64,000 bases of DNA from Spirochaetota bacterium. Its GTDB lineage: Bacteria; Spirochaetota; UBA6919; CBDBPB01. The position numbers were made by a program, and so were the translations under genes. Positions 3,028 to 55,196 of the stretch are shown here, one piece after another (within the stretch, counting starts at the first letter, position 1; the number at the start of each line of letters is the position of its first letter). The stretch covers positions 128,001 through 192,000 of the forward strand of contig CBDBPB010000004.1 of NCBI GenBank assembly GCA_965208615.1, read 5' to 3'. Under the pieces are notes generated by a model, which saw only the letters and a list, made by a program, of their open reading frames with translations, did not search any database and was not told the origin of the DNA.

Positions 3028-3916
3028 GTTAATAATTGTTCTAGTGGTATAGAGCAAAAGTATTCTAAGTTAGTTTATCTTTTTAAAGCTTCCTGAAGTG
3101 CAGTTAGTAATTGTTCTAGTGGTGTAGAGCAAAAGTATTCTAAGCTAGTTTATCTTTTTAAACTTCCTAAAGTGCAGTTAGTAATTGTTCTAGTGGTGTA
3201 GACCAAAAGTATTCTAAATTAGTTTATCTTTTTAAACTTCCTAAAGTGCAGTTAGTAATTGTTCTAGAGGTATAGACCAAAAGTATTCTAAGTTAGTTTA
3301 TCTTTTTAAACTTCCTGAAGTGCAGTTAGTAATTGTTCTAGTGGTGTAGACCAAAAGTATTCTAAGTTAGTTTATCTTTTTAAACTTCCTAAAGTGCTGT
3401 TAGTAATTGTTCTAGTGGTGTAGAGCAAAAGTATTCTAAGTTAGTTTATCTTTTTAAACTTCCTAAAGTGCTGTTAGTAATTGTTCTAGAGGTATAGAGC
3501 AAAAGTATTCTAAGTTAGTTTATCTTTTTAAACTTCCTAAAGTGCTGTTAGTAATTGTTCTAGTGGTATAGAGCAAAAGTATTCTAAGTTAGTTTATCTT
3601 TTTAAACTTCCTAAAGTGCTGTTAGTAATTGTTCTAGTGGTGTAGAGCAAAAGTATTCTAAGTTAGTTTATCTTTTTAAACTTCCTAAAGTGCTGTTAGT
3701 AATTGTTCTAGAGGTATAGAGCAAAAGTATTCTAAGTTAGTTTATCTTTTTAAACTTCCTAAAGTGCTGTTAGTAATTGTTCTAGTGGTGTAGAGCAAAA
3801 GTATTCTAAGTTAGTTTATCTTTTTAAACTTCCTAAAGTGCAGTTAGTAATTGTTCTAGAGGTGTAGACCAAAAGTATTCTAAGCTAGTTTATCTTTTTA
3901 AACTTCCTAAAGTGCA
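3028..3916 (+). repeat. Tandem array A: 12 x 74-bp units (first unit 75 bp)
   Basis: Unit GTTAGTAATTGTTCTAGWGGTRTAGASCAAAAGTATTCTAAGTTAGTTTATCTTTTTAAACTTCCTAAAGTGCW starts at 3028, 3103, 3177, 3251 ... 3843; no unique spacers. AGATAAAATCTATTTAG occurs on both sides (3006-3022, 3916-3932). Confidence 0.98.
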
Positions 3917-4500
3917 GATAAAATCTATTTAGTAATTGTGTTATAATAATTTTTTATCTAAAAGCTATAGTAATTACTAACTGGGGAGGATGGCGTTTTT
4001 TTTTTGATATTAGGTTATTTAAAGGGATATTATTTAATAATTTAGTTATCATTTTATGATAGAGTTATGACTAGTCATACAAGGTAAAAAGGCAAGACAT
4101 ATAACGTAAAGGGAAGTGAATTCCAGATTTCTTTATGGAACAGGAAAGTTAAGATATTCATGAAAAAGTTATTTTCTTGTGTCAAGCAGGTTATCCCTTT
4201 ATGCTCTTTAAGTGCTGTTTAAATGCCTTAGCAATGAACACAAAATATCACTTTTTATGCAAGTAGTCATCACTACGAGAGCTATTAAGAATCCCTTACT
4301 GAGACTAAGAATTATAGACCTTTATTAAGTGATAACGGATTTGCTGTTCCATAAAAGCTTAGAGGGGATTATTGGAATATTCTATATTGACTTTATATGT
4401 AATTTTCTATGTGAATTAAAAATAATAGAACAGCTTATATCTATAAAAATTGATAAATCTAGAACGCTTTTACTATAACCTACTAGAACATTTGATAATA
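3917..4500 (+). repeat. Dispersed non-coding element, copy A body (MITE-like or structured ncRNA); 304-bp inner module at 4097-4400
   Basis: 4011-4400 is near-identical to 26914-27303 and 54688-55077, and similar to the reverse complement of 43772-44150; nested inverted repeats; no ORF of 60 aa or more. Confidence 0.93.
3939..3947 (+). promoter_or_regulatory. Candidate extended -10 promoter (TGTTATAAT) pointing into the element body
   Basis: TGnTATAAT here and at 54614-54622 in copy D; copy B has TGTTGTAAT. AT-rich background weakens the call. Confidence 0.4.
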
Positions 4501-4560
4501 ACTTTTATATATTAAACCCACTCTTAAATATATTAGTAAATTTTATATGATATAAATATA

Positions 4561-6381
4561 CTAAAAAGTTAAAAACATAAAACAAAATATCATAATTATA
4601 GTCGGAATAATAGCATATTGTAGCAACCTAGCAGGTGATACAGTATTATCAGGAAAAAACTTCTTTAAAATAGACTGTCCAGCAGGATTAGGTGCATTAG
4701 CTATTACCGTTAATCCTCCACCAGCTACCGCTCCAGCAACTACTGCATACTTTAAACTAGGACTAAAATCCTTAACAAGTGTACTAAGTAAAGTAATAGC
4801 CGCGTTATCATTAAATGAAGTCAAAATAGTTGCACCAAATAATAATACCGTTTCGGATAACCTTGTTAAAATAGGCTCTATCCACCATTCCTGTACTCCC
4901 CCATGAATAACTAAACCAGCTAAAAAAAATCCCACTAAAAGAGGCGGCTTTAAGTTAATCCTATTCTGAAAATTAATTGTTACACGACTAAAACCCAAAA
5001 ATAATAAAAATCCCCCAATAAATAATGGTGGATGATGAGCGTTTATAACAGTCCATATCAAAAAACCTAAGTGAACAATCATAACCCAAGCAGGTACCCA
5101 ACCCTCTCTACTATCCCAATAAGGATCAACATATATAGCCCTTTTGCTAATAGGCAAAAGTCCAGGAAGAGTCTTCCTTAACTCATTAAGACGTGCCTTT
5201 TCAAAACTTTGATCAAATGCCTTTTCAACTAATGACTTGTTTATACCCTTTTCTTTAATCTCACTCAATATCCTTCCTTTTAAACCTATCCTTATCTTTT
5301 CAAACTCCCTGGCTAACTTATCAGTAAATCCTAACTCCTCGCCAGCAATAATCTCTGTCCTTTCAAATATTTCCTCTAACTCATCCTCTTTAATATACTT
5401 AGCCTTAAGCTCTCTCTGTAACCTAACAATAGCATATTTCTCTTGTAACCGCTCCATCTCTTTTCTAAAAAATAAAAAATATATAAAATTACTAATAATT
5501 ATCCCCATAGCGGCTTTCCAACCAAAATTACTAGCCATAAATACTAAACCCCAATCCCACTTATCAGCTACCATAAGAACAGGAGGTGCCGCAAAATGAG
5601 TAAGAGTACCACCAACAGATACATTAACAAATAATAAAGCTAATGTGGCATACTTAAAACTATTACTAGGCTCAAGATTATAAAACTTCTCCCCCAATAA
5701 AATAGCGGCTATAGTCATAGCCGCAGGCTCAGTAATAAATGAACCCAAAAGAGGTCCAAAAGTAAGAATAGTAAACCACCAAGAAATTAACATTCCCTTA
5801 GCTAAATTAGCAATCCGCCACATCAACATCTCTGAAAACTTTAAAACAGGCCTGCTAGAGGCTAAAGTCATAATAACCATAACAAAAAGTGGCTCGGTAT
5901 ACTTAACCTCATAGTTAAAATAATGAATAGCCGACTCCCATCCATAAATACCGCATATAGCCATGCCTAATACTACGCTCCATAAACCAAATACTACCTC
6001 TATCTCACCTAAAAAATGAAATACCTCTACCCCAAAATGATGAGAATGCTTATGAACCCTCCCCTCCTTTTTTAAAAGATCATGCTCATGAGCCCACTTA
6101 TGAGAAATACGAGTAAACATACTACTCAAAAATGTATGTATAATAGCAAATAAAAATATTATAGTCCCAATCAAATAAAAAGGATGCTTTATTATCCTAT
6201 TATATAAAATATCAACTAAACTATCATCCTTACTATAACTATCCAACTTTGGTGGAAAATCTAACTTACTGCTTGCATTATCCATAGGTGAACTATCATC
6301 ACTAACAGCAGAGTAAACTATAACAGCAATCCCAAAAGTAAATAATAATAAGACTATAAGCTTTTTTACAGAGCCTTTCAT
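4561..6381 (-). CDS. Putative Na+/H+ antiporter (DUF1504 family)
   Basis: 606 aa multi-TM protein; HFLGEIEVVFGLW, GSFITEPAAMT, NVSVGGTLTHFAAPPVLMVA and GGGLTVIANAPNPAG motifs. Confidence 0.85.
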   Translation of the reverse strand: MKGSVKKLIVLLLFTFGIAVIVYSAVSDDSSPMDNASSKLDFPPKLDSYSKDDSLVDILYNRIIKHPFYLIGTIIFLFAIIHTFLSSMFTRISHKWAHEHDLLKKEGRVHKHSHHFGVEVFHFLGEIEVVFGLWSVVLGMAICGIYGWESAIHYFNYEVKYTEPLFVMVIMTLASSRPVLKFSEMLMWRIANLAKGMLISWWFTILTFGPLLGSFITEPAAMTIAAILLGEKFYNLEPSNSFKYATLALLFVNVSVGGTLTHFAAPPVLMVADKWDWGLVFMASNFGWKAAMGIIISNFIYFLFFRKEMERLQEKYAIVRLQRELKAKYIKEDELEEIFERTEIIAGEELGFTDKLAREFEKIRIGLKGRILSEIKEKGINKSLVEKAFDQSFEKARLNELRKTLPGLLPISKRAIYVDPYWDSREGWVPAWVMIVHLGFLIWTVINAHHPPLFIGGFLLFLGFSRVTINFQNRINLKPPLLVGFFLAGLVIHGGVQEWWIEPILTRLSETVLLFGATILTSFNDNAAITLLSTLVKDFSPSLKYAVVAGAVAGGGLTVIANAPNPAGQSILKKFFPDNTVSPARLLQYAIIPTIIMIFCFMFLTF

Positions 6382-7019
6382 TCTATTAACCCCTTTTTTC
6401 TCATTGTATAAATAACTAGATCAGAAGCGTCTTCCAAAGATATTCTCGACATGTTAATAATTAAATCATAATAATGAGGATCAGAAACATCAGTAAAAAA
6501 ATAATCCCGAATAAAGGCATCTCTATCCTTCTGCATCTTAGTAATAAATTCTTTGCTTTCTATAATAGAAATACTCTTCTGTTTTGCCATCTGATCAATC
6601 CGCCAGTCCATAGTAGCTATAACTCGTACATGAAAACCATTTAATAACTCATGGGTAATAAAACATCCTCCTCTACCAACAATAATACTATTACCAGCAA
6701 TGGAAAGAGACTTAATCACCTTTGCCATCTTACTAAAAATTACAAAACGTTCAGGCTTATTAGTAATAAGTTTATTAAAAAACTCTGTAATAGTACTATC
6801 AGCAGGCTTGTCTAAAGACTCAACCAACTCCTTAGATAACTTTTCATCCTTTTCAATTTTAGCTAAAATCTCTTTATTATAGCTCTTCCACGGCGGATCA
6901 GACTTCTTAGTATTAAGTTTATCCTCAATCTTCTTAGCCAATACCCATCCTTCTGAGCCAAACTCCCTGGATAACGTAATAAAGGGCTTTTTATCATACA
7001 TATTATAACTACCTTTCAT
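6378..7019 (-). CDS. Cytidylate kinase-like family protein
   Basis: ITLSREFGSEG P-loop-like start, IIVGRGG, DPHYYDLIIN C-terminus; overlaps the antiporter start (ATGA). Confidence 0.85.
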   Translation of the reverse strand: MKGSYNMYDKKPFITLSREFGSEGWVLAKKIEDKLNTKKSDPPWKSYNKEILAKIEKDEKLSKELVESLDKPADSTITEFFNKLITNKPERFVIFSKMAKVIKSLSIAGNSIIVGRGGCFITHELLNGFHVRVIATMDWRIDQMAKQKSISIIESKEFITKMQKDRDAFIRDYFFTDVSDPHYYDLIINMSRISLEDASDLVIYTMRKKGLIE

Positions 7020-7081
7020 AACTTTATAGTATACATAATGTAAAAAAATATTAGTCTATAAAATAACAACAAGTATTTCTT

Positions 7082-8020
7082 TTAGTTTTCTTGAACTGTA
7101 ACAATTTTCATCCAATCAAGAAAACTAAGAGTTTCACCCTTTTCTTTAACTGCTATTACTGGTACATTAAGATTATGTATTAATTTCTCCGTTATACTAC
7201 CAAGTAATACCGATGTCATAAAATTTCGCCCCCTTGCTCCAACAACAACAAGGTGGATGCCTAACCTATCAATTTCTTTTTGGATCGCCTTAACAGGCTT
7301 TTCATCAAGAACAAAATTAATCTTTACATCTATATTATTAAGATCAACCGTATTAATAAAATGGCGGTATTCATTTTCAGCATTATTTTTCATCGCATTA
7401 GCAAATTCTTCTTCGTTCTTCCCAGTCTTATAATATCCAGACGGCAGACTAAATGTATGTATAGCGTATATTATAGACTGACCCGATGCTAAAGCATACC
7501 TAATAGCTATTTCCATAGCCTCATTAGAATGTTTAGAAAAGTCTACTGGAACAAGTATTCTTTCAATATTAGCCTCTATATTAACTGGGACTATCAATAC
7601 AGAACAAGGAGACTTTCTTGTTAACTTATCTGGAATAGTCCCCCCACTATATAATAATTTTTTTCCAGTTATAACTAGGTCAATCTCCTTTCTGACAGTC
7701 ATACGAAGCAAGCCCAATAACCTTGAACCCTCTCTCACCTCACATCTAACCTTAGTAGTCTTTGGCCCAATAAAGTGTTTTTTTATTGAGTCCTGCATCT
7801 TATCTTTAATAAACTCGTCTATAGGCTCTAAAAATGTATCATGATGCTTTTTAACCTCATCAGGTAAATCAAGAGTTTTGCTAATATGACAAAAATAGAC
7901 CTTATCCGAGCAAGCCAAGTTAGATATAACTGATGCCATTTTAATGACATATTCATCCCTATCGCTAAAATCAAGACAAACTAAAATTCGTTTATATCTA
8001 TACATTAAAAAGTTCCTCAA
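7082..8020 (-). CDS. Universal stress protein with tandem Usp domains
   Basis: RILVCLDFS ... SPCSVLIVP and RILVPVDFSKHS ... VVGARG ... LLGSITEKLI ... PVIAVK. Confidence 0.92.
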   Translation of the reverse strand: MRNFLMYRYKRILVCLDFSDRDEYVIKMASVISNLACSDKVYFCHISKTLDLPDEVKKHHDTFLEPIDEFIKDKMQDSIKKHFIGPKTTKVRCEVREGSRLLGLLRMTVRKEIDLVITGKKLLYSGGTIPDKLTRKSPCSVLIVPVNIEANIERILVPVDFSKHSNEAMEIAIRYALASGQSIIYAIHTFSLPSGYYKTGKNEEEFANAMKNNAENEYRHFINTVDLNNIDVKINFVLDEKPVKAIQKEIDRLGIHLVVVGARGRNFMTSVLLGSITEKLIHNLNVPVIAVKEKGETLSFLDWMKIVTVQEN

Positions 8021-8064
8021 ACATACTATTTATATAATAAGTCACATAATAGCCAAGAATTATA

Positions 8065-8682
8065 CTATTTACCGCCAAAAAGCAAACTAACAAGTTGAGG
8101 CCTTAAGTAAAACTGAAAAAAACAGTTAAAATCGTCATCAGTAAAACTAATATGGTAGTTTCCGTTTTTAGGATAAATTTTAAATCCCGCATTAATCTTA
8201 TCATCAAAATTAACTTCTAATCCAGAATTAAGAATGTCAAGAACCTTATTACTAAAATAGTCTTTTAAGCCTTCTTCATCCTTTTCAGAAAGCAGTATAC
8301 CAATGGATACCGGCTCAGAACTTTGTGTATTCCAATTTGTTATAATAGTCCCAATTATCTTTTTTAAAAAACTATTATCTTTAAAAACTTCTCTAATTGG
8401 CTCTTCCAATACTTTAACCTTTATAAGATTATCTATTCTCTCTCTAACAGCATTAATAGCCTGCCTTATTGACAGGCTCACTTCAGCTTTAGTTGAGCCT
8501 CTTAGCTCATCACCATGTCTTTTTGCATGTAATATAATCTCCTCTGCTTTAATATTAGCGTTCTTGATAATCTTTTCTGCCTTTTTTTTTGCGTTAGATA
8601 TAATTTTGTTTTTTTCAACCTCAGCTTTTTCGATGCTTTCTTTATAAATTTTTTCTGTCAACTCATCAATTTTGCTTTTCAT
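8065..8682 (-). CDS. V/A-type ATP synthase subunit E-like protein
   Basis: MKSKIDELTEKIYKE, helical N-terminus, GFKIYPKNGNYHISFTDDDF...YLRPQLVSLLF C-terminus typical of bacterial V-ATPase E. Confidence 0.85.
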   Translation of the reverse strand: MKSKIDELTEKIYKESIEKAEVEKNKIISNAKKKAEKIIKNANIKAEEIILHAKRHGDELRGSTKAEVSLSIRQAINAVRERIDNLIKVKVLEEPIREVFKDNSFLKKIIGTIITNWNTQSSEPVSIGILLSEKDEEGLKDYFSNKVLDILNSGLEVNFDDKINAGFKIYPKNGNYHISFTDDDFNCFFQFYLRPQLVSLLFGGK

Positions 8683-9088
8683 AGTAAGTTAACACCTTCT
8701 AATAAAAAAATAAAATTAATTCTCTAAATTAAAAAAACAGCTTTTATTACATAGTTAAAACCCCTATTAACACTAAGAAATACATGCTAAAATTAAAATT
8801 ATCCATATTAATTGTTATTAACTTATAGTGATAAAAATTAAACGAGGTATAATCATATTTATAAAGCTATATATTAAAATTTATGGAATTATTCCTACTT
8901 TAGTATGGAAAATTTGGATAGTTTTATAGAAAACTTTTAGATAGTCCCAAAAACTTAATTTTTAAAAAGCCTGTAACTTATAACACAATAAAACGTTAAC
9001 AATAATAGTAATTAAAAAATATTTTTATTCTTATTGGCATGATTATTGATTGTATAAAAATACACACTTCAAATTTAGGAGACTTTCT

Positions 9089-9496
9089 ATGAACAGAGTT
9101 AATTACTCTTTATTAATTACTTTCCTATTAGTAGCACCAGTAATCAGTTATATACTATACAAGAAAACAATTTATACAAAAGAATATGCTAATTATGCAA
9201 AAGCTATTATCAAAAAGTGTCAACCTTTTGTAAATACGCAACCTTCTCCCAAAAAATCTGTAAACTTTTTTTCAACGAAAGAGCTAAAACCTAAAAGAAT
9301 TACAATAAAGTCTCAAACAAAGAGAGTATCCATAAACAATAACCTATGGAAATTAAAAGAGAAGGTTATAATAGAAATTGAAAATCATAAAATACAATAT
9401 AAAGCTATTAAAAAAAGTTTTACCGTTAAAAAAAGTTTTAAGAGAAAAAAACCTTTTAAGTTAATACATTTTCCATTAAAATTATATAAATTTTAA
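9089..9496 (+). CDS. Hypothetical basic membrane-anchored protein
   Basis: ORF 9050-9496; ATG 9089 follows AGGAG; one N-terminal hydrophobic segment. Confidence 0.55.
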   Translation: MNRVNYSLLITFLLVAPVISYILYKKTIYTKEYANYAKAIIKKCQPFVNTQPSPKKSVNFFSTKELKPKRITIKSQTKRVSINNNLWKLKEKVIIEIENHKIQYKAIKKSFTVKKSFKRKKPFKLIHFPLKLYKF

Positions 9497-9569
9497 ACTA
9501 TAACCTATAATATAAAATCAAGCATACTTATTTTAAGCTTCAGAATACTTATTAAGGTAGCTATAAAAA

Positions 9570-10299: not shown

Positions 10300-10510
10300 T
10301 TTTTCTATCTTTATTTTAATAAAACAAATAAATAATCGATTTACTTAGGTAAACGAAGAAAATATTGTTATTAAATATTCTAGTATTTTAAATAAAGAAC
10401 ATTATAATATAACATAACTATTTAAAATGTATTAAAATACACCTAAAAGGCATCTAGTTTTAGGGAGATAAAAAAAGTTTTTTTAATAGATAAGATAAAC
10501 AATATACAAA

Positions 10511-10593
10511 AGAAAATAACTTTTCCATCAATATTTTACTTTTCTGTTCCACAAAGGAGTCTAAAATACATTTATCTTGACGTTATATGTTTT
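10511..10593 (-). repeat. Decayed relic of the dispersed element (5' part of the inner module)
   Basis: Reverse complement reads ACATATAACGTCAAG...CTTTGTGGAACAGAAAAGTAAAATATTGATGGAAAAGTTATTTTCT, matching element ACATATAACGTAAAG...CTTTRTGGAACAGGAAAGTTAAGATATTTATGAAAAAGTTATTTTCT. Confidence 0.85.
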
Positions 10594-13382: not shown

Positions 13383-13396
13383 TCACCCCTAAATTT

Positions 13397-16193: not shown

Positions 16194-16194
16194 A

Positions 16195-25082: not shown

Positions 25083-25447
25083 ATTTACTCTCCTTAATTT
25101 AATATAAAATTTAAAATTTAGTGCAAAACACTATACTTTATTATAACTATTAATTTATAAATAACCAAATAAAAAGTCAATTTTTACTTAAAACTTTTTA
25201 AGCTATATAAAATATACAAAACAAAACCTTATAGGGTAGACTTATTACCTGAACTATATTTAGAGTATTAGAGTAACAAAAAACAGAAGGTTATTAATGG
25301 TTTTAACAGATATTGTTATAAATTATTCAGCGGGTTATTATAAAAACGTTCTAAGGCGGTTTAGAACTTCTAAGTTTTTAGTATCAGGATATAAAGTTTA
25401 CTCTAATTTATACATACTTGTACAGTGCATATAGTAAAATAACGTTT

Positions 25448-25560
25448 GCTGAGGCTAAAATTATATACTTATTAAGTCTTAAAGCATTTGCCTTTCCATA
25501 AAGACATATAGCAGATTAATAGAATATTATATGTTGGTGTTATCCATAAAACTTTTGAAG
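25448..25560 (+). repeat. Decayed relic of the dispersed element (3' part of the inner module)
   Basis: GCTGAGGCTAAAATTATATACTTATTAAGTCTTAAAGCATTTGCCTTTCCATAAAGACATATAGCAGATT aligns with element ACTGAGACTAAGAATTATAGACCTTTATTAAGTGATAACGGATTTGCCGTTCCATAAAGCTATAGAGCAGATT. Confidence 0.8.
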
Positions 25561-25623
25561 GCTGTCTGTAATACTTTATAACATAATATGTAACTTAAGC
25601 AATATAAAAAATAACCCAATATT

Positions 25624-26807
25624 GTTAGTAATTGTTCTAATGGTATAGACCAAAAGTATTTTAAGTTAGAGTTAATAGCAAGCTGGTTTTAGCTAATACG
25701 ATGATTTTAAAGAAAAACATTGCTGATAGTATTAAAGAGGGGCTATTTATAATGCTTATAACTCAAGGATAACGGCTTCTCATAAAGTTGAGGTTGTTGA
25801 CTATGGGAATACATATAAACATGTACGTTTAGACTTTGAATTAGGGTTTATAATTGTTCTAGAGGTGTATACCAAAAGTATTTTAAGTTAGAGTTAATAG
25901 CAAGCTGGTTTTAGCTAATACGATGATTTTAAAGAAAAACATTGCTGATAGTATTAAAGAGGGGCTATTTATAATGCTTATAACTCAAGGATAACGGCTT
26001 CTCATAAAGTTGAGGTTGTTGACTATGGAAATACATATAAACATGTACGTTTAGACTTTGAATTAGGGTTTATAATTGTTCTAGAGGTGTAGACCAAAAG
26101 TATTTTAAGATAGAGTTAATAGCAAGCTGGTTTTAGCTAATACGATGATTTTCAAGAAAAACATTGCTGATAGTATTAAAGAGGGGCTATTTATAATGCT
26201 TATAACTCAAGGATAACGGCTTCTCATAAAGTTGAGGTTGTTGACTATGGAAATACGTATAAACATGTACGTTTAGACTTTGAATTAGGGTTTATAATTG
26301 TTCTAGAGGTGTAGACCAAAAGTATTTTAAGATAGAGTTAATAGCAAGCTGGTTTTAGCTAATACGATGATTTTCAAGAAAAACATTGCTGATAGTATTA
26401 AAGAGGGGCTATTTATAATGCTTATAACTCAAGGATAACGGCTTCTCATAAAGTTGAGGTTGTTGACTATGGGAATACATATAAACATGTACGTTTAGAC
26501 TTTGAATTAGGGTTTATAATTGTTCTAGAGGTGTAGACCAAAAGTATTTTAAGTTAGAGTTAATAGCAAGCTGGTTTTAGCTAATACGATGATTTTCAAG
26601 AAAAACATTGCTGATAGTATTAAAGAGGGGCTATTTATAATGCTTATAACTCAAGGATAACGGCTTCTCATAAAGTTGAGGTTGTTGACTATGGAAATAC
26701 GTATAAACATGTACGTTTAGACTTTGAATTAGGGTTTATAATTGTTCTAGAGGTGTAGACCAAAAGTATTTTAAGTTAGTTTATCTTTTTAAACTTCCTA
26801 AAGTGCA
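25624..26807 (+). repeat. Tandem array B: 5 x 222-bp units followed by one 74-bp unit
   Basis: TAATTGTTCT recurs at 25629, 25851, 26073, 26295, 26517 and 26739 (period 222); the first ~46 bp match the array A core; the last unit (26734-26807) is the array A 74-mer. Confidence 0.98.
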
Positions 26808-27456
26808 GATAAAATCTATTTAGTAATTGTGTTGTAATAATTTTTTATCTAAAAGATATAATAATTAGTAGCACATAGGCAAACATAATAAGAAGGTATT
26901 TTTTGTGATAATTTAGGTTATTTAAAGGGATATTATTTAATAATTCAGTTATCATTTTATGATAGAATTATGACTAGTCATACAAGGTAAAAAGGCAAGA
27001 CATATAACGTAAAGGGAAGTGAATTCCAGATTTCTTTATGGAACAGGAAAGTTAAGATATTTATGAAAAAGTTATTTTCTTGTGTCAAGCAGGTTATCCC
27101 TTTATGCTCTTTAAGTGCTGTTTAAATGCCTTAGCAATGAACACAAAATATCACTTTTTATGCAAGTAGTCATCACTACGAGAGCTATTAAGAATCCCTT
27201 ACTGAGACTAAGAATTATAGACCTTTATTAAGTGATAACGGATTTGCCGTTCCATAAAGCTATAGAGCAGATTATTTAAATATCACATATTGACTTTATA
27301 TGTAATACTTCAAAAAGTATACCTAATCCTCTATGGGTAAATAACAAACAAAAAATAATCTACATAAAACCTCTTTACAATAAAAAACTAAAACCTTCAC
27401 TAACAAAATGCCTGATAGAACGTTTTTTGTTATATTTGCTAAAACGTTTGTTAACA
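26808..27456 (+). repeat. Dispersed non-coding element, copy B body; 304-bp inner module at 27000-27303
   Basis: Near-identical to copies A and D; downstream part shared with copy C up to GCTAAAACGTTTGTTAAC. Confidence 0.93.
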
Positions 27457-27462
27457 ACAATG

Positions 27463-27490
27463 TTGAAAAATTAACTTGTTTTGTTATAAT
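27463..27490 (+). promoter_or_regulatory. Sigma70-type promoter for the DUF1385 gene
   Basis: TTGAAA-16 nt-TATAAT with extended TG. Confidence 0.55.
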
Positions 27491-27494
27491 ATAC

Positions 27495-27542
27495 ATTAAA
27501 TACTTTATTCAATCTAAAATTAAATACTTTATTCAATCTAAA
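27495..27542 (+). repeat. Perfect 24-bp tandem duplication in the 5' UTR
   Basis: ATTAAATACTTTATTCAATCTAAA twice, immediately before the AGGGG RBS. Confidence 0.9.
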
Positions 27543-27555
27543 AGGGGATAGTAAT

Positions 27556-28545
27556 TTGAAAAAAAATGAAATAAATGTTGGCGGACAGGCTCTAATAGAA
27601 GGCGTCATGATGAGAGGTAAAGATGACTACTTTCTTGCACTATTAAAAGAATCCGGAGAAATAAAGGTCATTCATAAAAAAATTAAGTCTATTACAAAAA
27701 AATATAAATTTCTAAAGCTACCATTCTTTAGAGGTATAATAGCCCTATTCCAAAACCTAACCATAGGTATGAAAAGCTTAACCTTATCCGCAAATGAAGC
27801 TCTACCAGAAAAAGATAAAATAAAATCTAAAAAAACAGAAGGTATAACCATCTTCTTTATGGTATTTTTATCCATCGTATTTGGAATGGGTATATTCGTT
27901 GCCATACCAAATATAGTAATAGAGGTAATGGGTGTAAAAGAGACAGCTGAACCTATGCTATTCCACCTTATATCTGGTTTATTAAGGCTTATTATGTTTG
28001 TATTATATGTTTATGGCATATCCCTAATGAAAGACATAAAAAGAGTATTTCAGTTCCACGGTGCAGAACATAAAGCCGTTAACGCATACGAGGCAAATAA
28101 AGAACTAAACCTAAATAATGCTAAAGAATGTAGCACTTATCACCCTAGATGCGGTACCTCATTTTTATTTTTCGTTTTTTTTATTTCAATATTCATATTT
28201 TCACTCGTACCAATAGCTTTACTATGGCTATTCCCATGGTTTGAACCACTACATATTATATTCCAAAAAATCATCTTAATAGGAAGTCATATAGTTCTTT
28301 TGCCTGTGGTAGCGTCAATCTCTTATGAGCTAATAAAACTAGCCTTTAAAAAACAAGATAATCCAATACTAAAAGCCATGAACCTACCAGGCTACTACAT
28401 ACAAAAATTAACCACTAAAGAACCAGATGATAAACAAATAGAAGTTGCTCTTACTGCCTTAAAAGAAGTTGTAAAACTAATTAGTCCTGAGTCTAATAAA
28501 GAACTAAATAATATAGTAGACCCTAAACCTGCTATGGTAAACTAA
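27556..28545 (+). CDS. DUF1385 domain membrane protein
   Basis: VGGQALIEGVMMR, RVFQFHGAEHK, HPRCGTSF, TTKEPDDKQIEVA; TTG start. Confidence 0.92.
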   Translation: MKKNEINVGGQALIEGVMMRGKDDYFLALLKESGEIKVIHKKIKSITKKYKFLKLPFFRGIIALFQNLTIGMKSLTLSANEALPEKDKIKSKKTEGITIFFMVFLSIVFGMGIFVAIPNIVIEVMGVKETAEPMLFHLISGLLRLIMFVLYVYGISLMKDIKRVFQFHGAEHKAVNAYEANKELNLNNAKECSTYHPRCGTSFLFFVFFISIFIFSLVPIALLWLFPWFEPLHIIFQKIILIGSHIVLLPVVASISYELIKLAFKKQDNPILKAMNLPGYYIQKLTTKEPDDKQIEVALTALKEVVKLISPESNKELNNIVDPKPAMVN

Positions 28546-43492: not shown

Positions 43493-43642
43493 AAATATTT
43501 ACCTTAAGGTTATTTTATAGTTATTGTATTTTTAATAATTTGATTAAGCCATTATACCTCTAATTAATTTTGTGTTAATTAAGCTTTATCTTAATATTTA
43601 TCGATCATTTAATAATAAAAATAAATAAAATAAGAATTATAT

Positions 43643-44192
43643 ATTAACAAGCGTTTTAGCAAATATAACAAAAAAGGTTTTATCGGGCGATTTTGTTAGT
43701 GAAGGTTTTAGGAAGTTATTTTTTTATTTGTTATTTACTCATAGAGGATTAGCTATACTTTTTGAGGCTTTACATATAAAGTCAATATGTGATATTTAAA
43801 TAATCTGCTCTAAGGCTTTATGGAACGGCAAATCCGTTATCACTTAATAAAGGTGTATAATTCTTAGTCTCAGTAAGGGATTCTTAATAGCTCTCGTAGT
43901 GATGACTACTTGCATAAAAAGTGATATTTTGTGTTCATTGCTGAAGTATTTAAGCAGTACTTAAAGAGCATAAAGGGATAACCTGCTTGAGACAAGAAAA
44001 TAGCTTTTCCGTAAATATCTTAACTTTCCTGTTCCATAAAGAAATCTAAAATCTATCTGCCTTTACGTTATATGTCTTCTTTTTGCCTTGTAGACTTTGT
44101 CATAAATCTATCATAAAATGATAACTGAATTATTAAATAATATCCCCTTAACCTTAATAAAAAAATAAATATACTTACTCGTCTGACTCAAA
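43643..44192 (-). repeat. Dispersed non-coding element, copy C body (inverted); 304-bp inner module at 43772-44075
   Basis: Reverse complement aligns with copies A, B and D; most diverged of the four copies. Confidence 0.92.
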
Positions 44193-45200
44193 ACCTAAGC
44201 CTACATGTTTATATTTATCCCCATTGTCAATAACCTATTTCACTGCCTTTTTACTTTCATCAGAACACTTTCTATAACTTCATAATCTCTATTTTACTAA
44301 GCTTTAAATAGATAAACTAACTAGAGTACTTTTGAGCTACACTACTAAAACAATTAGTAACACCTAAACCTACATGTTTATATCTATCCCCATTGTCAAA
44401 AACCTATTTCATAACCTTTTTACCTTCATCAGAACACTTTCTATAACTTCATAATCTCTATTTTACTAAGCTTTAAATAGATAAACTAACTAGAGTACTT
44501 TTGAGCTACACTACTAAAACAATTAGTAACACCTAAACCTACATGCTTATATCTATCCCCATTGTCAAAAACCTATTTCATAACCTTTTTACCTTCATCA
44601 GAACACTTTCTATAACTTCATAATCTCTATTTTTTAAGCTTTAAATAGATAAACTAACTAGAGTACTTTTGAGCTACACTACTAAAACAATTAGTAACAC
44701 CTAAACCTACATGCTTATATCTATCCCCATTGTCAATAACCTATTTCACTGCCTTTTTACCTTCATCAGAACACTTTCTATAACTTCATAATCTCTATTT
44801 TACTAAGCTTTAAATAGATAAACTAACTAGAGTACTTTTGAGCTACACTACTAAAACAATTAGTAACACCTAAACCTACATGCTTATATCTATCCCCATT
44901 GTCAAAAACCTATTTCATAACCTTTTTACCTTCATCAGAACACTTTCTATAACTTCATAATCTCTATTTTACTAAGCTTTAAATAGATAAACTAACTAGA
45001 GTACTTTTGAGCTACACTACTAAAACAATTAGTAACACCTAAACCTACATGCTTATATCTATCCCCATTGTCAATAACCTATTTCATAACCTTTTTACCT
45101 TCATCAGAACACTTTCTATAACTTCATAATCTCTATTTTACTAAGCTTTAAATAGATAAATTAGCTAGAATACTTTAGTAACACTATCCTAAAACATCGT
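44193..45200 (-). repeat. Tandem array C: ~6 x 169-bp units (one is 168 bp; outermost core degenerate)
   Basis: ACCTAARCCTACATG recurs at 44193, 44362, 44531, 44699, 44868 and 45037; the minus-strand unit begins GTTACTAATTGTTTTAGTAGTGTAGCTCAAAAGTACTCTAGTTAGTTTATCTATTTAAAGCTT, homologous to the array A core. Confidence 0.97.
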
Positions 45201-48245: not shown

Positions 48246-48250
48246 TTATT

Positions 48251-49144: not shown

Positions 49145-49149
49145 TTATT

Positions 49150-50217
49150 TTAGTAAGTAGGCATTTTTTTAAGGGTTAATTTATTCACAATACTCAGAAC
49201 AGTCTGATTATGTATTTCTGTTCCCAGCGATATTCTTGCATAGCCAATAAAAGACGGTTCAGTAAAGAATTTAATTATTATACCTTCTTTTTTTAGTTCA
49301 CTGTCCAAAGGCTTTTGTATTTTATTTGGTATTTTAACCAGTATAAAGTTTGAGCTAGACTTATATGCAGTTATACCATCTATTTTATTTAGTTCATGGA
49401 ATAGCATTTCTCTATCTTTAATAATAGACTTAACCACTTGACCATAATATCCGTTAGAGTTAAGGGCAGCTACTGCAAGACGTTCAGATATTCTATTAAA
49501 GCCTAAAATCTTATTATAAAACTTCATTCTATCCCTTACTTCAGCCTTAGAAAAAGCGTATCCAATACGCACTCCAGCAAGGGCATAGTATTTTGAGAAA
49601 GAACGTACTACAATTAAGTTACTATATTTTTCTAATAGTTCTATAATTTTATTAGTTGTATCCTCATTAGTGAATCCCCAATAAGTCTCATCAAGACAAA
49701 CTATTCCATCTTTATGTACTTTTAAGAGTTCCTCTAGTTCATTTAGGTCTACGTAATTACCAGTTGGATTATTGGGAGCACAAACTAATATTAATTTTGA
49801 ATTATATTTTTTTTTATATTCCAGTATAGTTTTAATATTGGTTATAAACTCTGTTCCTTTTTGATCAAGGGGATAGTTAATTGGATTAGCATTTCTTTGT
49901 TCCACAAGGGTATTATAGTACCACCATGACTTAGCAGGTAGAAGTACATTATCTCCCTGGGATATATATAGAGTGAAAAGTGTTTTTATAATATCTTCAG
50001 CTCCATAGCCTAAGATTATATCCTCAACGGATATATTAAATCTTTTAGCTATTTCTTGTTCTATAACCCCGATACTACTGCGAGAGTAATAAATAAAGTC
50101 ATCAATTGATATATTTTTTACTACATCATAACAATCTGGTGCTGGACCGTATAGATTTTCATTTTTATTTAGTTGTATCATATTTTGACCAGTTTTTTTC
50201 ATTAAGTTAGTCTCCAT
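49150..50217 (-). CDS. PLP-dependent class I/II enzyme (HisC/CobD-like)
   Basis: LNKNEN, PNNPTG, DETY, RSFSKYYALAGVRIGY. Confidence 0.88.
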   Translation of the reverse strand: METNLMKKTGQNMIQLNKNENLYGPAPDCYDVVKNISIDDFIYYSRSSIGVIEQEIAKRFNISVEDIILGYGAEDIIKTLFTLYISQGDNVLLPAKSWWYYNTLVEQRNANPINYPLDQKGTEFITNIKTILEYKKKYNSKLILVCAPNNPTGNYVDLNELEELLKVHKDGIVCLDETYWGFTNEDTTNKIIELLEKYSNLIVVRSFSKYYALAGVRIGYAFSKAEVRDRMKFYNKILGFNRISERLAVAALNSNGYYGQVVKSIIKDREMLFHELNKIDGITAYKSSSNFILVKIPNKIQKPLDSELKKEGIIIKFFTEPSFIGYARISLGTEIHNQTVLSIVNKLTLKKMPTY

Positions 50218-50435
50218 ATTATAAATCTATATTTATTTTCTAAAATACAAAATAGTTATCATGCTAGCTTAAAAGAAGGCTAAAGTTTATAATAAGTATT
50301 TATATAAATAATACAAAACTTTTAAAAGTCAATTTACTATTTTTTGCTTATTTTTTTATACTATAAAGCTTCGTTTAAAAAACAATAATAACAATACTCT
50401 AGTTTATAGTTATTGTATAATTCCTGTTAAACCCT

Positions 50436-51545
50436 ATGACTAATACTAAAGAAGAAAACCCAGACTACTTATCAAAGCAGATTATTACTTATATAGGCAG
50501 TAAAAGGGCATTACTACCCTTCATTGGAAAGGGGATTAATATTATATTAAAAAGGCTTAACAAAAAAAAGCTAAAAATGTTTGATTGTTTTTCTGGCTCT
50601 GGCATTGTAGCAAGATATTGTAAGCAGTTTTCTGAGAAAATTATAGTTAATGACATTGAAAAATACTCTGAGATAATTAATAAGTGTTACCTAACTAACA
50701 ACTCATCCTTGGATATAAAAAGCCTTAGAGACTTATATAATACAATTAGGCATAAACTTAAAGAGTTCCCTCTTGAAAAGGGTATAATATCTGAGTTTTA
50801 TGCTCCAAAAGACGATAAACATATTGAATATGGAGAAAGAGTATTTTATACCACAAGGAATGCTGGATATATTGACTCAGTAATAAAATATATTAATGAC
50901 GTCCCAAAGGATATAAGGCATTTATTTATAGCCCCTTTGCTATCAGAGGCCTCTATACATGTAAATACTGCTGGTACATTTAAAGGGTTTTATAAAAACT
51001 CTTATGGCATTGGACAGTTTGGTGGGAGCAATGGTGATGCATTATTCAGGATTAAAGGCAATATAGACTTACCATTTCCTATTTTTAGTAATTTTGATTG
51101 TGAGTTTAAAATATATAACGGACCTGCTAATGACATAGTAAAAATAGCTGAAGAGACAGATGTAGCATATATTGATCCTCCTTACAACCAGCATCCTTAT
51201 GGTTCTAACTATTTTATGTTAAATATATTATGCGATTATAAAAACCCTAATAAAATTAGCAGGGTATCCGGAATACCCTCAAATTGGAATAGATCACCAT
51301 ATAACAAAAAACCTGATTATTATAAGGCTTTTTCTAATTTGTTATTTGACATAAAGGCAAAATATTTATTAATATCTTTTAGCTCAGAAGGCTTTATTGA
51401 AGCTGAATCTATGTTAAGTCTTCTAAAAAAGATAGGCAGGGTTAAGGTTTTAGAGAAAAAGTATAATACTTTTAGAGCTAGTAGAAATCTTAAGAATAGA
51501 CCCACACACATAAAAGAGTACCTTTATATACTGGAAAAGGCTTAA
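50436..51545 (+). CDS. DNA adenine methyltransferase (D12 class), no adjacent endonuclease
   Basis: YIGSKR, DCFSGSGIV (motif I), AYIDPPYNQHPY (motif IV). Confidence 0.9.
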   Translation: MTNTKEENPDYLSKQIITYIGSKRALLPFIGKGINIILKRLNKKKLKMFDCFSGSGIVARYCKQFSEKIIVNDIEKYSEIINKCYLTNNSSLDIKSLRDLYNTIRHKLKEFPLEKGIISEFYAPKDDKHIEYGERVFYTTRNAGYIDSVIKYINDVPKDIRHLFIAPLLSEASIHVNTAGTFKGFYKNSYGIGQFGGSNGDALFRIKGNIDLPFPIFSNFDCEFKIYNGPANDIVKIAEETDVAYIDPPYNQHPYGSNYFMLNILCDYKNPNKISRVSGIPSNWNRSPYNKKPDYYKAFSNLLFDIKAKYLLISFSSEGFIEAESMLSLLKKIGRVKVLEKKYNTFRASRNLKNRPTHIKEYLYILEKA

Positions 51546-51548
51546 ATC

Positions 51549-52865
51549 TTATCTATGCTTTTTAGTATAAATTAATATTGGCACTCCACTAAAACTAAAT
51601 TCCTGTCTTATTTGGTTAATTAAATAATCTTTATAGTTTTTAGTAAACAAGTCTTTTCTATTTATAAACAGCAGAAACTTAGGAGGTGAACTAGTTATTT
51701 GAGTACCATAATATATTTTTAACCTACCACGTTTAGTTGAGGGTATATATTTATGTTGAGCTTTTTCCAATAAGCTATTCAGTTCACTAGTACTTATACG
51801 ACGGCTAGCCTCATTATATATATTAATAGTTTTATCTAGGAGTTTATTAATATTAGCACCAGTTTTTGCGGATATATTAATTACCGGTATGAACTTAGAT
51901 ATAGCAAAGCGGAATCTTAAATAATCTACATATTTGGGAAAGCTGGCATTTTTATCTAAAACATCCCATTTATTTACTGCAATAATAAGGGTCTTACCTC
52001 TATTTACTGCTACTGCTATTATTTTTTTATCTTGTTCAGTTATGTTATCACAGGAGTCTATAAGATGAATGGCAATATCACTTTTTTCAATACTCTTAAT
52101 AGCCCTATTCACGCTGTAGTATTCTATACTATCTATAACCTTAGTTTTTTTTCTTATACCTGCAGTATCAATAAAGTTAATGTTATAGTTTTTATACTTT
52201 ACGACAACAGATATAGAATCCCTTGTAGTACCTGGTATATCAGATACAAGACTTCTTTCCCAGCCAATAATTTTATTAATAAGAGTGGACTTTCCTACAT
52301 TAGGCTTACCTACAATAGCTATATTAACTAATTGTTTATTTTCATTTATATTATTTACCATTGGTATTTTTAGGATTATATTATCCATTAGCGCATCAAA
52401 GTTAGTACCATGGCTTGCAGATATAGGTATAGGCTTACCTATATTAAGTTTATAAGCCTCCACACTGTTATATTCAAGGTTTATGTTATCGCATTTATTA
52501 ACTAGTAATATTAATTTTTCAACATATTTTCTAAGTATATCGCCAATTATATAGTCATCCTTAGTTAGTTGAGATTCCACAACTAAAAGGATTAGGTCAG
52601 CTTCTTCAATGGCAATCTCAGTTTGTATTCTCACGATATTGGAAAAGTCATCCTCATTAATATCCTCAGTTATACCCCCTGTATCAATTATAGTAAAGTT
52701 ATAATTATTATAGTTAACATTATGGTAATGACGATTTCTGGTAACTCCAGGAGTTGGGTTTATAATAGATTCTCGTTTTCCAATTATTCTATTATAAATA
52801 GAGGATTTTCCTACATTTGGTCTTCCTACAATTGCGATTTTTGGTATACTGTTTAGTTTTTTCAA
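51549..52865 (-). CDS. der: Ribosome biogenesis GTPase Der
   Basis: Two G domains (GRPNVGKS/DTGG/NKCD and GKPNVGKS/DTAG/NKWD) and a KH-like C-terminus. Confidence 0.97.
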   Translation of the reverse strand: MKKLNSIPKIAIVGRPNVGKSSIYNRIIGKRESIINPTPGVTRNRHYHNVNYNNYNFTIIDTGGITEDINEDDFSNIVRIQTEIAIEEADLILLVVESQLTKDDYIIGDILRKYVEKLILLVNKCDNINLEYNSVEAYKLNIGKPIPISASHGTNFDALMDNIILKIPMVNNINENKQLVNIAIVGKPNVGKSTLINKIIGWERSLVSDIPGTTRDSISVVVKYKNYNINFIDTAGIRKKTKVIDSIEYYSVNRAIKSIEKSDIAIHLIDSCDNITEQDKKIIAVAVNRGKTLIIAVNKWDVLDKNASFPKYVDYLRFRFAISKFIPVINISAKTGANINKLLDKTINIYNEASRRISTSELNSLLEKAQHKYIPSTKRGRLKIYYGTQITSSPPKFLLFINRKDLFTKNYKDYLINQIRQEFSFSGVPILIYTKKHR

Positions 52866-53036
52866 TATTTTTCCTAAAAAAAGTTATAAAATTATAATAT
52901 AACAAAATTATAGGCAATATATAAAATAGATTTATATAGATATTATATTAGCAAGGGTTTTATAGGGTATAATGTTAATAAGAAATCCCCTAATAATGTG
53001 GATTAAACATTATTAATAAGATAGAAATATTTAAAA

Positions 53037-53065
53037 AAAGTTAGACCTTAAAAAAGGTCAACTTT
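53037..53065 (-). terminator. Intrinsic terminator after the metalloprotease lipoprotein gene
   Basis: AAAGTT(A)GACCTT-loop-AAGGTCAACTTT hairpin with an adjacent A-tract (U-tract on minus). Confidence 0.6.
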
Positions 53066-53083
53066 AGTAGGTTTTTTAATAGA

Positions 53084-54337
53084 CTAGTTATCTATAACGT
53101 GTACCTTTCTTTCTTTATCCTTAAGGCTATCATCTATTATATAACTATCTTCGGGTTGAACAGACCTTCTTGTTCGACTTGGTTTTCCATATACATAAAT
53201 CTGCGGCTTTGTTTTTATACGCCAGGGATGATAATGAGTCCTATAAAAATATTGATAATAAAAATCTTTGATAAATACATTTATATTATTAATAGGTTTA
53301 TTAATATTAATAGTTTTATAACCCGGGTATTGTGTATAACCATTACCACCATAAACTCCTTTTATTGCTTGAAGTTCGTAGTCATGGGGTTCATCAGGGC
53401 TAGCTGGACTTAAATGGCTATACATAATAAGCCTTCTAAGGTCTATTAGGCCAGATAGTGACTCTAAACTAGGGATAGGGGTAGGGCTACGGGGAAGCTC
53501 TGGCCTGTTTGGGTGTCGTAAACCAAGAAGATGTCCTATTTCATGAGTCATTACTATTTGATTTTTATTTCTATTTTTATTTTTATTTTCAAACTCTTCA
53601 AACTTTGCCTTATTTATTATAACAGTTGCACTGTCTATTATGTTGCCGTAAGTGGTTATTATTGTTATCCCCAGTGTCTTAGGAGTAAAGTTACAGTATT
53701 TTTTTTCTAGCTCTGATATTCCATAACCATTACAATTATAATCTGCTAAAGTAACCCAAAAGCTTGGCCTTAAATACATATTATTACCTTTTTTTATAAG
53801 TACCCTTTTTGTAGTATATTTAGCGTTAGGTATATTTGATTTCCATTTGCTAACAGCATTATTTGTATAGTTGTATAGTTTTGTTTGTTGAACTTTATTT
53901 TCGCCAAGATTTACCTTGCAATCTTTTGGGTCCCACTCACCATTACACTTAGCCTTAGTAGTCTTATCACAAGTAACAACGCCGATATAAGTAGTTGTAC
54001 CTTTTTCTATCTTACAAACTTTAAGGAACTTATCTTCTAAGTATTTTAATCTTTTTTCTGCTTCTTTTAATCTTTTTTCTGCTTCTTTTAATCTTTTTTC
54101 TGCTTCTTTTAATCTTTCTTTTGCTTCTGCTGTTTTTGATTCATCAGAATTTGCGTTTTCAACCTCTTTCTCTGCATCTTCAACCTCTTTCTCTGCATCT
54201 TTAACCTCTTTATCTGCTTTGTCTAACAGACTTTCAACATTTTTATCACAATTACCCAGAGCCTCACAGGATATATCATCCTCTCCGCATCCTATTAGTA
54301 AAAGTAAAGTTAGTAAAATAAAGAATATCTTTTTCAT
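53084..54337 (-). CDS. Lipoprotein with coiled-coil heptad repeats, a 4-Cys module and a metzincin-type Zn metalloprotease domain
   Basis: LLIGC lipobox; KEVEDAE and KEAEKRL repeats; HEIGHLLGLRH (HExxHxxGxxH) with IMY Met-turn. Confidence 0.85.
   Translation of the reverse strand: MKKIFFILLTLLLLIGCGEDDISCEALGNCDKNVESLLDKADKEVKDAEKEVEDAEKEVENANSDESKTAEAKERLKEAEKRLKEAEKRLKEAEKRLKYLEDKFLKVCKIEKGTTTYIGVVTCDKTTKAKCNGEWDPKDCKVNLGENKVQQTKLYNYTNNAVSKWKSNIPNAKYTTKRVLIKKGNNMYLRPSFWVTLADYNCNGYGISELEKKYCNFTPKTLGITIITTYGNIIDSATVIINKAKFEEFENKNKNRNKNQIVMTHEIGHLLGLRHPNRPELPRSPTPIPSLESLSGLIDLRRLIMYSHLSPASPDEPHDYELQAIKGVYGGNGYTQYPGYKTININKPINNINVFIKDFYYQYFYRTHYHPWRIKTKPQIYVYGKPSRTRRSVQPEDSYIIDDSLKDKERKVHVIDN
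54044..54220 (-). repeat. Two blocks of in-frame 21-bp coding tandem repeats
   Basis: TTTTAATCTTTTTTCTGCTTC x3 plus one variant (54044-54127); TTCAACCTCTTTCTCTGCATC x2 plus one variant (54158-54220). Confidence 0.9.
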
Positions 54338-54517
54338 GATTTCAATCTATTATATTTGTTAGTTAGATTTGAACTTTTATTATTAAGCTCATTAAAAGTA
54401 TATAGTAACAGTTTATTTATAATATTCAAGGAAAAAAGCTTAAATTTATTTCAAAAGGTATAACTATATTTTAATAATAGGTTTTAATATTCTCAATTTG
54501 GCATATCTAAACATAAT

Positions 54518-55196
54518 GTTAATAATTGTTCTAGTGGTATAGAGCAAAAGTATTCTAAGTTAGTTTATCTTTTTAAACTTCCTAAAATGCGGATAAAATC
54601 TATTTAGCAATTGTGTTATAATAATTTTTTATCTAAAAGCTATAGTAATTAGTAACTGGGGAGGATGGCGTTTTTTTTTTTTGATATTAGGTTATTTAAG
54701 GGGATATTATTTAATAATTTAGTTATCATTTTATGATAGAGTTATGGTTAGTCATACAGGGTAAAAAGGCAAGACATATAACGTAAAGGGAAGTGAATTC
54801 CAGATTTCTTTGTGGAACAGGAAAGTTAAGATATTTATGAAAAAGTTATTTTCTTGTGTCAAGCAGGTTATCCCTTTATGCTCTTTAAGTGCTGTTTAAA
54901 TGCCTTAGCAATGAACACAAAATATCACTTTTTATGCAAGTAGTCATCACTACGAGAGCTATTAAGAATCCCTTACTGAGACTAAGGATTATAGACCTTT
55001 ATTAAGTGATAACGGATTTGCCGTTCCATAAAAGCTTAGAGCAGATTATTGGAATATTCTATATTGACTTTATGTGTAAAACTTCAGAAAGTATACCAAT
55101 CCTCTATGTGTTAAATACCTTAAGCTGACTCCTATAAAAAGTAACTTGCGTCTTGAACAACATAATAAAACCTCTCGTAATATCACTAAAATATTC
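54518..55196 (+). repeat. Dispersed non-coding element, copy D, with a single 74-bp left unit (54518-54591); inner module at 54774-55077
   Basis: Near-identical to copy A from the 74-mer through the inner module; right boundary approximate. Confidence 0.92.

Follow-up and report, generated by a model that had tools for sequence, protein, structure and literature searches.

The 64,000-nt stretch of DNA considered here (G000:C4:128001-192000, referred to below as the window) belongs to a 2.46-Mb genome of 9 contigs with ~31% G+C, and carries four copies, A to D, of a dispersed non-coding repeat. The repeats are probably small non-autonomous transposable elements, of the type known as MITEs (for miniature inverted-repeat transposable element), whose two ends were both copied from the ends of a Mu/B3-like phage, which would make them a natural "mini-Mu". 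An initial annotation of the window had offered two possibilities, either a non-autonomous mobile element with a re-copied end, or a multicopy structured RNA or chromosome-organising site. The first of these is supported and can now be made specific: the core of the re-copied end is a two-part counterpart of the terminal repeat carried by a resident transposable prophage, and is found in inverted form at the other end of the element. The RNA part of the second finds no support in Rfam, folding energy or covariation, and the organising-site part is weighed below.

The annotation had also advised searching for a copy that contains or adjoins a transposase gene; one such copy was found, split by a prophage that lies on another contig at G000:C7:424830-460176. 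The two parts of this copy are 35.3 kb apart, at C7:460177-460477 (positions 1-301 of the query) and C7:424638-424829 (positions 294-485), and the DNA between them is bounded by ~54-bp terminal inverted repeats and flanked by a direct target duplication of 8 bases, or of 6 if the ends are read as TG...CA, so that the footprint of transposition is seen directly. The 532-aa transposase of this prophage (C7:427508-429106) matches phrog_310 (E 3.4e-35) and gives an rve match of 23 bits, under the Pfam cut-off, along with weak IS481/IS21-type matches; the 282-aa ATPase matches phrog_296, "DNA transposition protein", and AAA_22. Early and regulatory genes for GemA, DUF3102, a sigma factor, anti-repressor paralogues and a CI-like repressor are present, as are late genes for terminase, a portal/minor-head fusion, the major head protein, tail sheath, tape measure and baseplate. 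Judged from its predicted genes, the insertion is a complete-looking 35.3-kb Mu/B3-like transposable prophage of putative myovirus type, combining a DDE transposase with an ATPase, inverted termini, a 6-8-bp duplication and late genes. The transposase found no tblastn match in 50,697 phage records, and a sample of 300 other genomes of the phylum gave only weak matches, at 26-31% identity, in 3 of them.

Further loci are related to this prophage. An orphan 5.2-kb duplicate of its early region, 98.5% identical and with the transposase and ATPase genes intact, is located at C3:10639-15823; no late genes belong to this cassette and no end motifs lie nearby, and transposase might be supplied from it independently of the prophage. 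From C7:139130 to ~172000 extends a decayed relative of the prophage, retaining one recognisable terminus but having lost the transposase genes and the far end. Solo end-like stretches are also present at C4:364394-364419 and C7:310010.

The basic unit of the element is ~690 bp long (e.g., 687 bp at C4:110415) and consists, in order, of a left end, a left arm, a ~380-bp conserved non-coding core and a right tail. What the initial annotation had described for the window was borne out by alignment and Tandem Repeats Finder: four copies share a non-coding body, their 304-bp inner modules align without gaps at 90.8-97.7% identity, the ~46-bp start common to the array units is real, and the arrays differ in unit length and number, with periods of 74 bp in copy A (3028-3917, 12.0 copies, 96% matches), 222 bp in copy B (25629-26779, 5.2 copies, 98% matches) and 169 bp in copy C (44193-45176, 5.8 copies, 97% matches), copy D having one 74-bp-type unit only. 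The absence of open reading frames (ORFs) of at least 60 aa from the four intergenic regions was also confirmed; ORFs of at least 50 aa number 0, 1, 0 and 0 in the regions of A, B, C and D, and the longest is the single 57-aa ORF at 27323-27496 on the minus strand, beside copy B. The bounds of the copies needed adjustment, with the four copies themselves standing but the ends of A, C and D corrected and the start of A moved left: copy A is now ~2938-4502, a degenerate extra unit at ~2938-3027 having been added at its left, copy C is 43642-45183, and copy D ends at ~55205 rather than 55196. Two further degenerate fragments of the core are present in the window and close the following list of features.

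2938-3027, plus strand: outermost, degenerate left-end unit of copy A, starting TG + GTTAC and resembling the longer left-end units of other copies; it ends with a short stretch that also follows the array.
3028-3917, plus strand: array of copy A, 12 x 74-bp units, with 12 end motifs at 74-bp steps; each unit is a 46-bp bipartite phage-end-like sequence plus 28 bp.
3918-4019, plus strand: remainder of the left arm of copy A, from array to core; the equivalent stretch occurs as discrete variant types across copies.
4020-4402, plus strand: conserved non-coding core of copy A, with the 304-bp module at 4097-4400.
4403-4502, plus strand: right tail of copy A, type beta, ending in two inverted end sites.
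25623-26815, plus strand: left-end array of copy B, 5.2 x 222 bp followed by one 74-bp-type unit, with motifs at 222-bp steps; every unit opens with the bipartite end.
26923-27305, plus strand: conserved core of copy B, with the module at 27000-27303.
27306-27456, plus strand: right tail of copy B, type alpha; besides its inner end site it has, further out, ~55 bp with homology to the terminal repeat of the prophage, and it terminates ...TAAC-A.
43642-43769, minus strand: right tail of copy C, type alpha, with inner and outer inverted end sites.
43770-44152, minus strand: conserved core of copy C, with the module at 43772-44075.
44193-45183, minus strand: left-end array of copy C, 5.8 x 169 bp, plus an outermost truncated unit starting TGTTAC at 45183.
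54517-54591, plus strand: single left-end unit of copy D, TG + bipartite end.
54697-55079, plus strand: conserved core of copy D, with the module at 54774-55077.
55080-55205, plus strand: divergent right tail of copy D, with a degenerate inverted end site that the motif scan missed; a weak end.
25446-25554, plus strand: degenerate 3' part of an older core, just upstream of copy B (76% identity over 112 nt, E 8e-18).
10506-10593, minus strand: isolated degenerate core fragment (81% identity over 89 nt).

Comparison of the right tails across the family yields two types, both finishing in a ~17-nt motif that is present once or twice, and the inverted form of this motif opens the left end and every array unit. 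The end motif is GTTANNAANNGTTYTAG, with one mismatch allowed; at the left of 32 copies it runs forward and recurs with each array unit, at the right of 25 it is inverted, and 21 copies have it on both sides, giving 111 instances with 75 distinct sequences. The left unit contains two direct copies of a ~11-nt site placed 26 nt apart, which together make up the 46-bp core. Immediately outside the motif, T precedes it at the left in 31 of the 32 cases and A follows it at the right in 18 of the 25, which sets the element termini as TG...CA; the inverted repeats of the element are imperfect.

The terminus of the prophage shows the same two-site layout as the ends of the element, and the homology between them was observed directly in end alignments scored against 2000 shuffles. 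The right end of copy B, taken as its reverse complement, aligns with the prophage terminus over ~58 nt with a score of 66 (shuffles 17.5 +/- 3.2, maximum 36), and that of copy C does so over ~58 nt with a score of 51 (shuffles 17.1 +/- 3.1), both sites being in register in each case; the second, decayed prophage end scores no better than these right ends. For the beta-type right end of copy A, also as its reverse complement, the score is 34 against shuffles of 18.6 +/- 3.3, a value reached by ~0.001 of shuffles. Among left units, those of copies D and A match the prophage end along 50 nt, again with the two sites in register, and are equalled by ~0.001 and ~0.0045 of shuffles, respectively; that of copy C is weaker, 0.17 of shuffles being as high. 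When one whole element was compared with the 35-kb prophage by blastn with no prior, the two best matches were the two prophage termini, at E 3.9e-5 each. The pattern expected of a mini-Mu is present in the sites themselves: two predicted binding sites 26 nt apart, in register with the prophage terminus, within TG...CA termini. In the proposed mechanism, the prophage transposase and its AAA+ activator would bind the ends of the element and would have moved it in trans.

The homology is confined to the ends. No convincing counterpart of the core was found in the prophage by blastn (best E 0.002 over 33 nt), and a phage-derived core was rejected when blastn at word size 7 against both prophages matched the termini only. 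This bears on the idea that each copy is a separate decayed prophage insertion that has lost its interior, for which decayed relatives and solo ends do exist in the genome (C7:139130, C4:364394-364419). As all 41 copies identified in the genome share a ~380-bp core that is absent from the prophage, a single origin followed by amplification of a miniature form is indicated instead, and the copies also form sub-families that cluster locally; independent decay is accordingly given very little credence.

The copy number comes from a blastn search of the 2.46-Mb genome, a check that the initial annotation had suggested for the module and the array core. With copy A as query, 78 matching pieces were recovered, 41 of which are at least 300 bp long, at 84-100% identity, and count as near-full copies. 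The repeats of the genome amount to 152,010 bases, or ~6% of its 2.46 Mb, and the element family is dominant among them, its copies making up ~1% of the genome. Mean pairwise identity of the core over the 41 copies is 0.854, with a maximum of 0.985. For 15 of the 41 the nearest relative lies within 120 kb on the same contig, where 2000 permutations of the locations average 3.8 and never exceed 11; this local clustering of related copies fits either local transposition or gene conversion between neighbours.

That the copies or arrays are assembly artefacts is almost certainly wrong. The genome is apparently metagenomic, at ~4.5x depth in one run, and the array lengths are unconfirmed by reads; set against this, the 41 copies have distinct flanks, substitutions and array periods, and one of them is cleanly split by the prophage with a target duplication. 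In one public run, which is possibly the source sample and so is not independent, summed contig depth over the element is 82-228 compared with ~4.5 in single-copy flanks, or 18-50x single-copy depth. This single public run holding the region consists of short contigs that break at repeats, with joints contributed by other copies, and no RNA run was listed for the region.

All 41 copies are intergenic, their contexts having been read from a crude ORF caller with ORFs of at least 100 aa. Divergent genes flank 14 of the copies and tandem genes 23, the element being co-oriented with the genes in 9 and opposed to them in 14; 3 lie between convergent genes and 1 is at a contig end. The element shuns convergent gaps and shows no orientation preference, a pattern that would not be expected if it served as a leader or promoter. 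On its flanks are housekeeping genes with no relation to one another, including those for fumarate reductase-like, Hsp70-like and flagellar rod proteins, lysyl-tRNA synthetase, a malate dehydrogenase-like protein and the hydrogenase small subunit. A role as the 5' leader or upstream region of a gene family was ruled out by these unrelated downstream genes together with the lack of orientation bias. A loose lipoprotein family is found beside several left ends, which does not account for most copies.

The imperfect inverted repeats enclose a ~650-bp segment in promoter-bearing intergenic regions, and several copies adjoin surface-lipoprotein genes, as might be expected if the repeats flanked an invertible, phase-variable promoter segment flipped by a site-specific recombinase. 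This is extremely improbable, as the neighbours are mostly housekeeping genes and the repeats match the termini of a transposable phage. In family searches of limited sensitivity no serine recombinase was found, and a Phage_integrase search of the genome returned only two tyrosine recombinases, both Xer-sized (C4:85925-86446 and C8:117172-117678). The contigs of the one public run hold no interpretable strand-switch joints.

Other mobile-element enzymes are scarce. The absence of transposase, reverse transcriptase and integrase genes from the window, reported in the initial annotation, agrees with genome-wide family searches, though these missed the divergent transposase of the prophage. Searches with rve, Phage_integrase, DDE_Tnp_1, TnpB zinc ribbon, Y1_Tnp, RVT_1 and Resolvase, which are of limited sensitivity, placed no match in the window, and those for rve, DDE_Tnp_1, TnpB, Y1, reverse transcriptase and resolvase gave none in the genome at the same limited sensitivity; the Pfam scan covered the 10 largest of the 63 window ORFs of at least 80 aa. 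No multi-copy transposase genes appeared in a megablast of the genome against itself. Two classes of repeat were considered and rejected. A clustered regularly interspaced short palindromic repeat (CRISPR) array is excluded by inter-repeat stretches that are identical, leaving no unique spacers, with no search having been aimed at cas genes. Repetitive extragenic palindromes or bacterial interspersed mosaic elements (REP/BIME) with their associated RAYT transposase, whose palindromic units measure 20-40 bp, are excluded by units of 74-318 bp, a core of ~380 bp and the lack of any Y1_Tnp match in the genome.

No coding signal was detected in the element. Among the short ORFs of the consensus none is intact in more than 28 of the 41 copies, and substitutions have no 3-base periodicity. 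Hidden coding was rejected on small-ORF preservation, codon periodicity and a tblastn comparison of genome ORFs of at least 100 aa with one element, which gave no convincing match.

A core of ~380 nt that is conserved, non-coding and poor in indels could also suggest a multicopy structured non-coding RNA gene, with the surrounding repeats being incidental, and one hairpin does carry a compensatory A-U to G-C change, found in 3 related copies and so representing one event. Membership of a known RNA family, which the initial annotation had proposed to check, was not seen: with the covariance models of Rfam 15 there were 0 matches at the gathering score in the window and 0 at E <=10 in 2850-4560. 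Folding of the core is no better than that of shuffles (z of -0.95 for the plus strand, -0.50 for the minus). Run on 30 of the 41 copies, each spanning the core, RNAalifold gave a consensus of -25.6 kcal/mol in which 4 of 68 pairs are changed on both sides, and the covariation score of 0.074 is at shuffle level (0.072 +/- 0.002; reached by 103 of 500 shuffles). Three copies were scanned for transcription signals; promoter-like sites exceeded shuffled counts only in copy D and none is conserved across element types, and no terminator-like sites were found. Adding the lack of orientation bias, an RNA gene is very improbable.

Across the family, arrays of seven periods (74, 110, 169, 201, 222, 263 and 318 bp) are present in at least 8 of the 41 copies, the left end being amplified up to 15-fold. 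Within any one array, what lies between the repeats is the same each time (unit identity 96-98%). As each unit starts with the end sequence while the periods vary, amplification must have taken place several times independently. The opening motif of the end is met again ~90 bp inward in copy A, which may have offered a foothold for unequal crossing-over or slippage. The arrays would have formed as the end-site motifs repeated along the left arm recombined unequally or slipped, and their growth would have multiplied the predicted transposase-binding end up to 15-fold, independently at several loci. In the copies at C4:382085, C4:602262 and C2:114158, the right tail is followed by tandem ~100-bp units, so amplification is not confined to the left end.

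The module is of exactly 304 bp in 34 of the 41 copies (303 bp in 5, 313 in one and 316 in one), and its mean pairwise identity is 0.88, compared with 0.78-0.81 in adjoining segments. Such constraint, together with the arrays, is what would be expected if the element were kept by selection as a protein-binding platform, acting as a sink or decoy for transposase or repressor or as a chromosome-organising site, with the 304-bp module being a functional cis element. Consistent with this, the 111 end sites borne by the element far outnumber the two prophage termini, at least 8 of 41 copies acquired arrays, of seven periods in all, 34 keep the module at its exact length, and the orphan transposase/ATPase cassette persists on C3 without phage ends or late genes. 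On the other hand, binding and selection are both predictions, module identity is just modestly above that of its neighbours, arrays can grow neutrally via unequal crossing-over between repeated motifs, and, with one copy of the element itself a target of the prophage, no protection is evident. Such a platform is unlikely, though less so than the other alternatives, and the same low chance is given to its stronger form, in which end-mimic arrays and a length-constrained module make up a selected cis-acting system serving either as a transposase sink or as dispersed pseudo-ends. As a sink, the arrays would assemble dead-end transposase complexes and dampen phage replication; as pseudo-ends, they would allow the phage machinery to replicate or package adjacent host DNA starting from the element. 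Were either of these true, it would represent a new phage-host or phage-satellite relationship built on transposase-binding DNA alone.

Returning to the elements as phage-derived MITEs, small size, lack of coding capacity, terminal inverted repeats, many intergenic copies and an autonomous partner with matching ends are all found, and target-site duplication is not. As it lacks this last feature, the element is filed as a MITE-like variant and not as a textbook member. The missing duplications are the first of several points that weigh against a mobile origin from phage ends. Longest common substrings, and 8-mers and 6-mers with mismatched-pair controls, gave no signal of target duplication; 6-mers flanking the same copy differ at a mean of 4.05 positions and those of mismatched pairs at 4.09 (n=21), and only the copy at C7:2642 shows a flank match of 5/6 or 7/8 among the 21. 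At ~88% pairwise identity duplications should still be visible, and the prophage has a clean one. Replicative intramolecular transposition, or later recombination among the 41 copies, could have scrambled the flanks; however, an 8-mer comparison between copies found no perfect match that would reveal exchanged flanks. The core is not phage-derived, and the strict length of its module in 34 of 41 copies suggests that it may do something for which a selfish element would have no need. No two copies are more than 98.5% identical, so recent activity is unsupported, and each site of the left end departs from the prophage end at 2-3 positions, so that recognition by the prophage transposase is a prediction. 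Transposition by Mu-type phages is subject to target immunity, and the presence of the prophage within a copy of the element is the opposite of this, such that the ends of the element may not be bound. As copies of the element make up so little of the genome, uniform insertion would seldom place a prophage in one, though this happened once only.

A trace of insertion is offered by a tandem lipoprotein gene array on C1, where four spacers are without the element and a fifth holds a 973-bp insertion that starts exactly TGTTAC, this being a single paralogous comparison. Head-to-tail arrays of paralogous genes were noted at three places in the genome, encoding four lipoproteins of ~310 aa (C1:264765-268894), four membrane proteins of ~567 aa (C2:48789-55919) and five small proteins of 106-132 aa (C7:162981-165193). 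Beside the copies in the window, a perfect 24 bp x 2 direct repeat (27495-27543) lies between the right end of copy B and the ORF at 27556-28545, and 21-bp tandem repeats (54044-54217; 4.0 and 2.9 copies) lie within the minus-strand ORF 53084-54337. The latter is lipoprotein-like and diverges from copy D, and a paralogue that is 86% identical adjoins the decayed prophage at C7:173669-174616.

Outside this genome the element was not found in the collections searched. In 40 relatives there was no match beyond one of 48 nt (E 3.7e-4), taken as noise; exact and degenerate 31-mer scans of public genome, metagenome and viral contig collections gave 0 matches, as did blastn of the element against phage and plasmid collections. 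The valyl-tRNA synthetase encoded in the window is at most 58% identical to any named record, its best two being labelled Spirochaetia and Spirochaetes, which points to a host of a deep-branching, Spirochaetota-like lineage as far as sequence similarity can place it.

In comparing the element with known systems, MITEs are normally traced to insertion sequences (IS). The likeness to IS-derived bacterial MITEs is considerable, as the element is small, non-coding, intergenic and multicopy, with inverted repeats matching those of a resident autonomous element; it differs in having as its partner a transposable phage of 35 kb in place of an IS, in its long two-part ends (~46-55 bp), in the tandem amplification of its terminal module and in the absence of target duplication. 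The BOX elements of pneumococci are likewise modular intergenic repeats, with one module whose number of repeats varies between loci, but they are not known to have a partner element with matching ends, and the amplified module here is the predicted transposase-binding end itself. A census of MITEs describes MITE-rich Spirochaetes genomes of low coding density and MITEs shared between hosts and viruses, and in the portion of its text consulted neither "Mu-like" nor "transposable phage" occurs (PMC11602168). Nor did full-text literature searches bring up any account of a natural MITE that descends from a transposable phage.

The element therefore matters as a high-copy miniature that appears to descend from, and depend on, a transposable phage, a relationship otherwise represented in the literature searched by laboratory mini-Mu only. 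If this is true, phage transposition machinery can fill a small genome with dozens of non-coding passengers, and the "re-copied end" of the initial annotation is explained as amplified transposase-binding sites. It would also provide a natural system in which to study end recognition, target choice and possible decoy effects in a very divergent Mu/B3-like phage. The practical value is modest, in that the ends and transposase could become a genetic tool for a lineage that is without any.

According to the sections of the literature drawn upon, the usual transposable phages are 36-39 kb long, have TG-CA termini and duplicate 5 bp (Mu) or 6 bp (B3) of target (PMC8705779). In the features covered there, the partner prophage resembles Mu, B3 and the transposable prophages of Leptospira in its DDE transposase, ATPase activator, TG...CA termini and late genes, its 35.3 kb being near the usual range and its duplication being 6 bp, as in B3, if the ends are TG...CA (PMC8705779). 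It is unlike Mu and B3 in its very divergent transposase and in an early operon that reads toward the near prophage end. Engineered mini-Mu and mini-D3112, as presented in those sections, keep the phage ends without phage genes and receive transposase in trans (PMC8705779, PMC5847225). The element shares with them two inverted multi-site ends, TG...CA termini and a lack of phage genes in between, and would presumably share their dependence on transposase and ATPase; relative to the constructs described in these sources, it is natural, present in 41 copies, built around a conserved non-phage core and amplified up to 15-fold at its left end, shows no target duplications, and its mobilisation is deduced from its ends. 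Functionally the element is closest to laboratory mini-Mu and mini-D3112, and structurally it is closest to the MITEs of bacteria.

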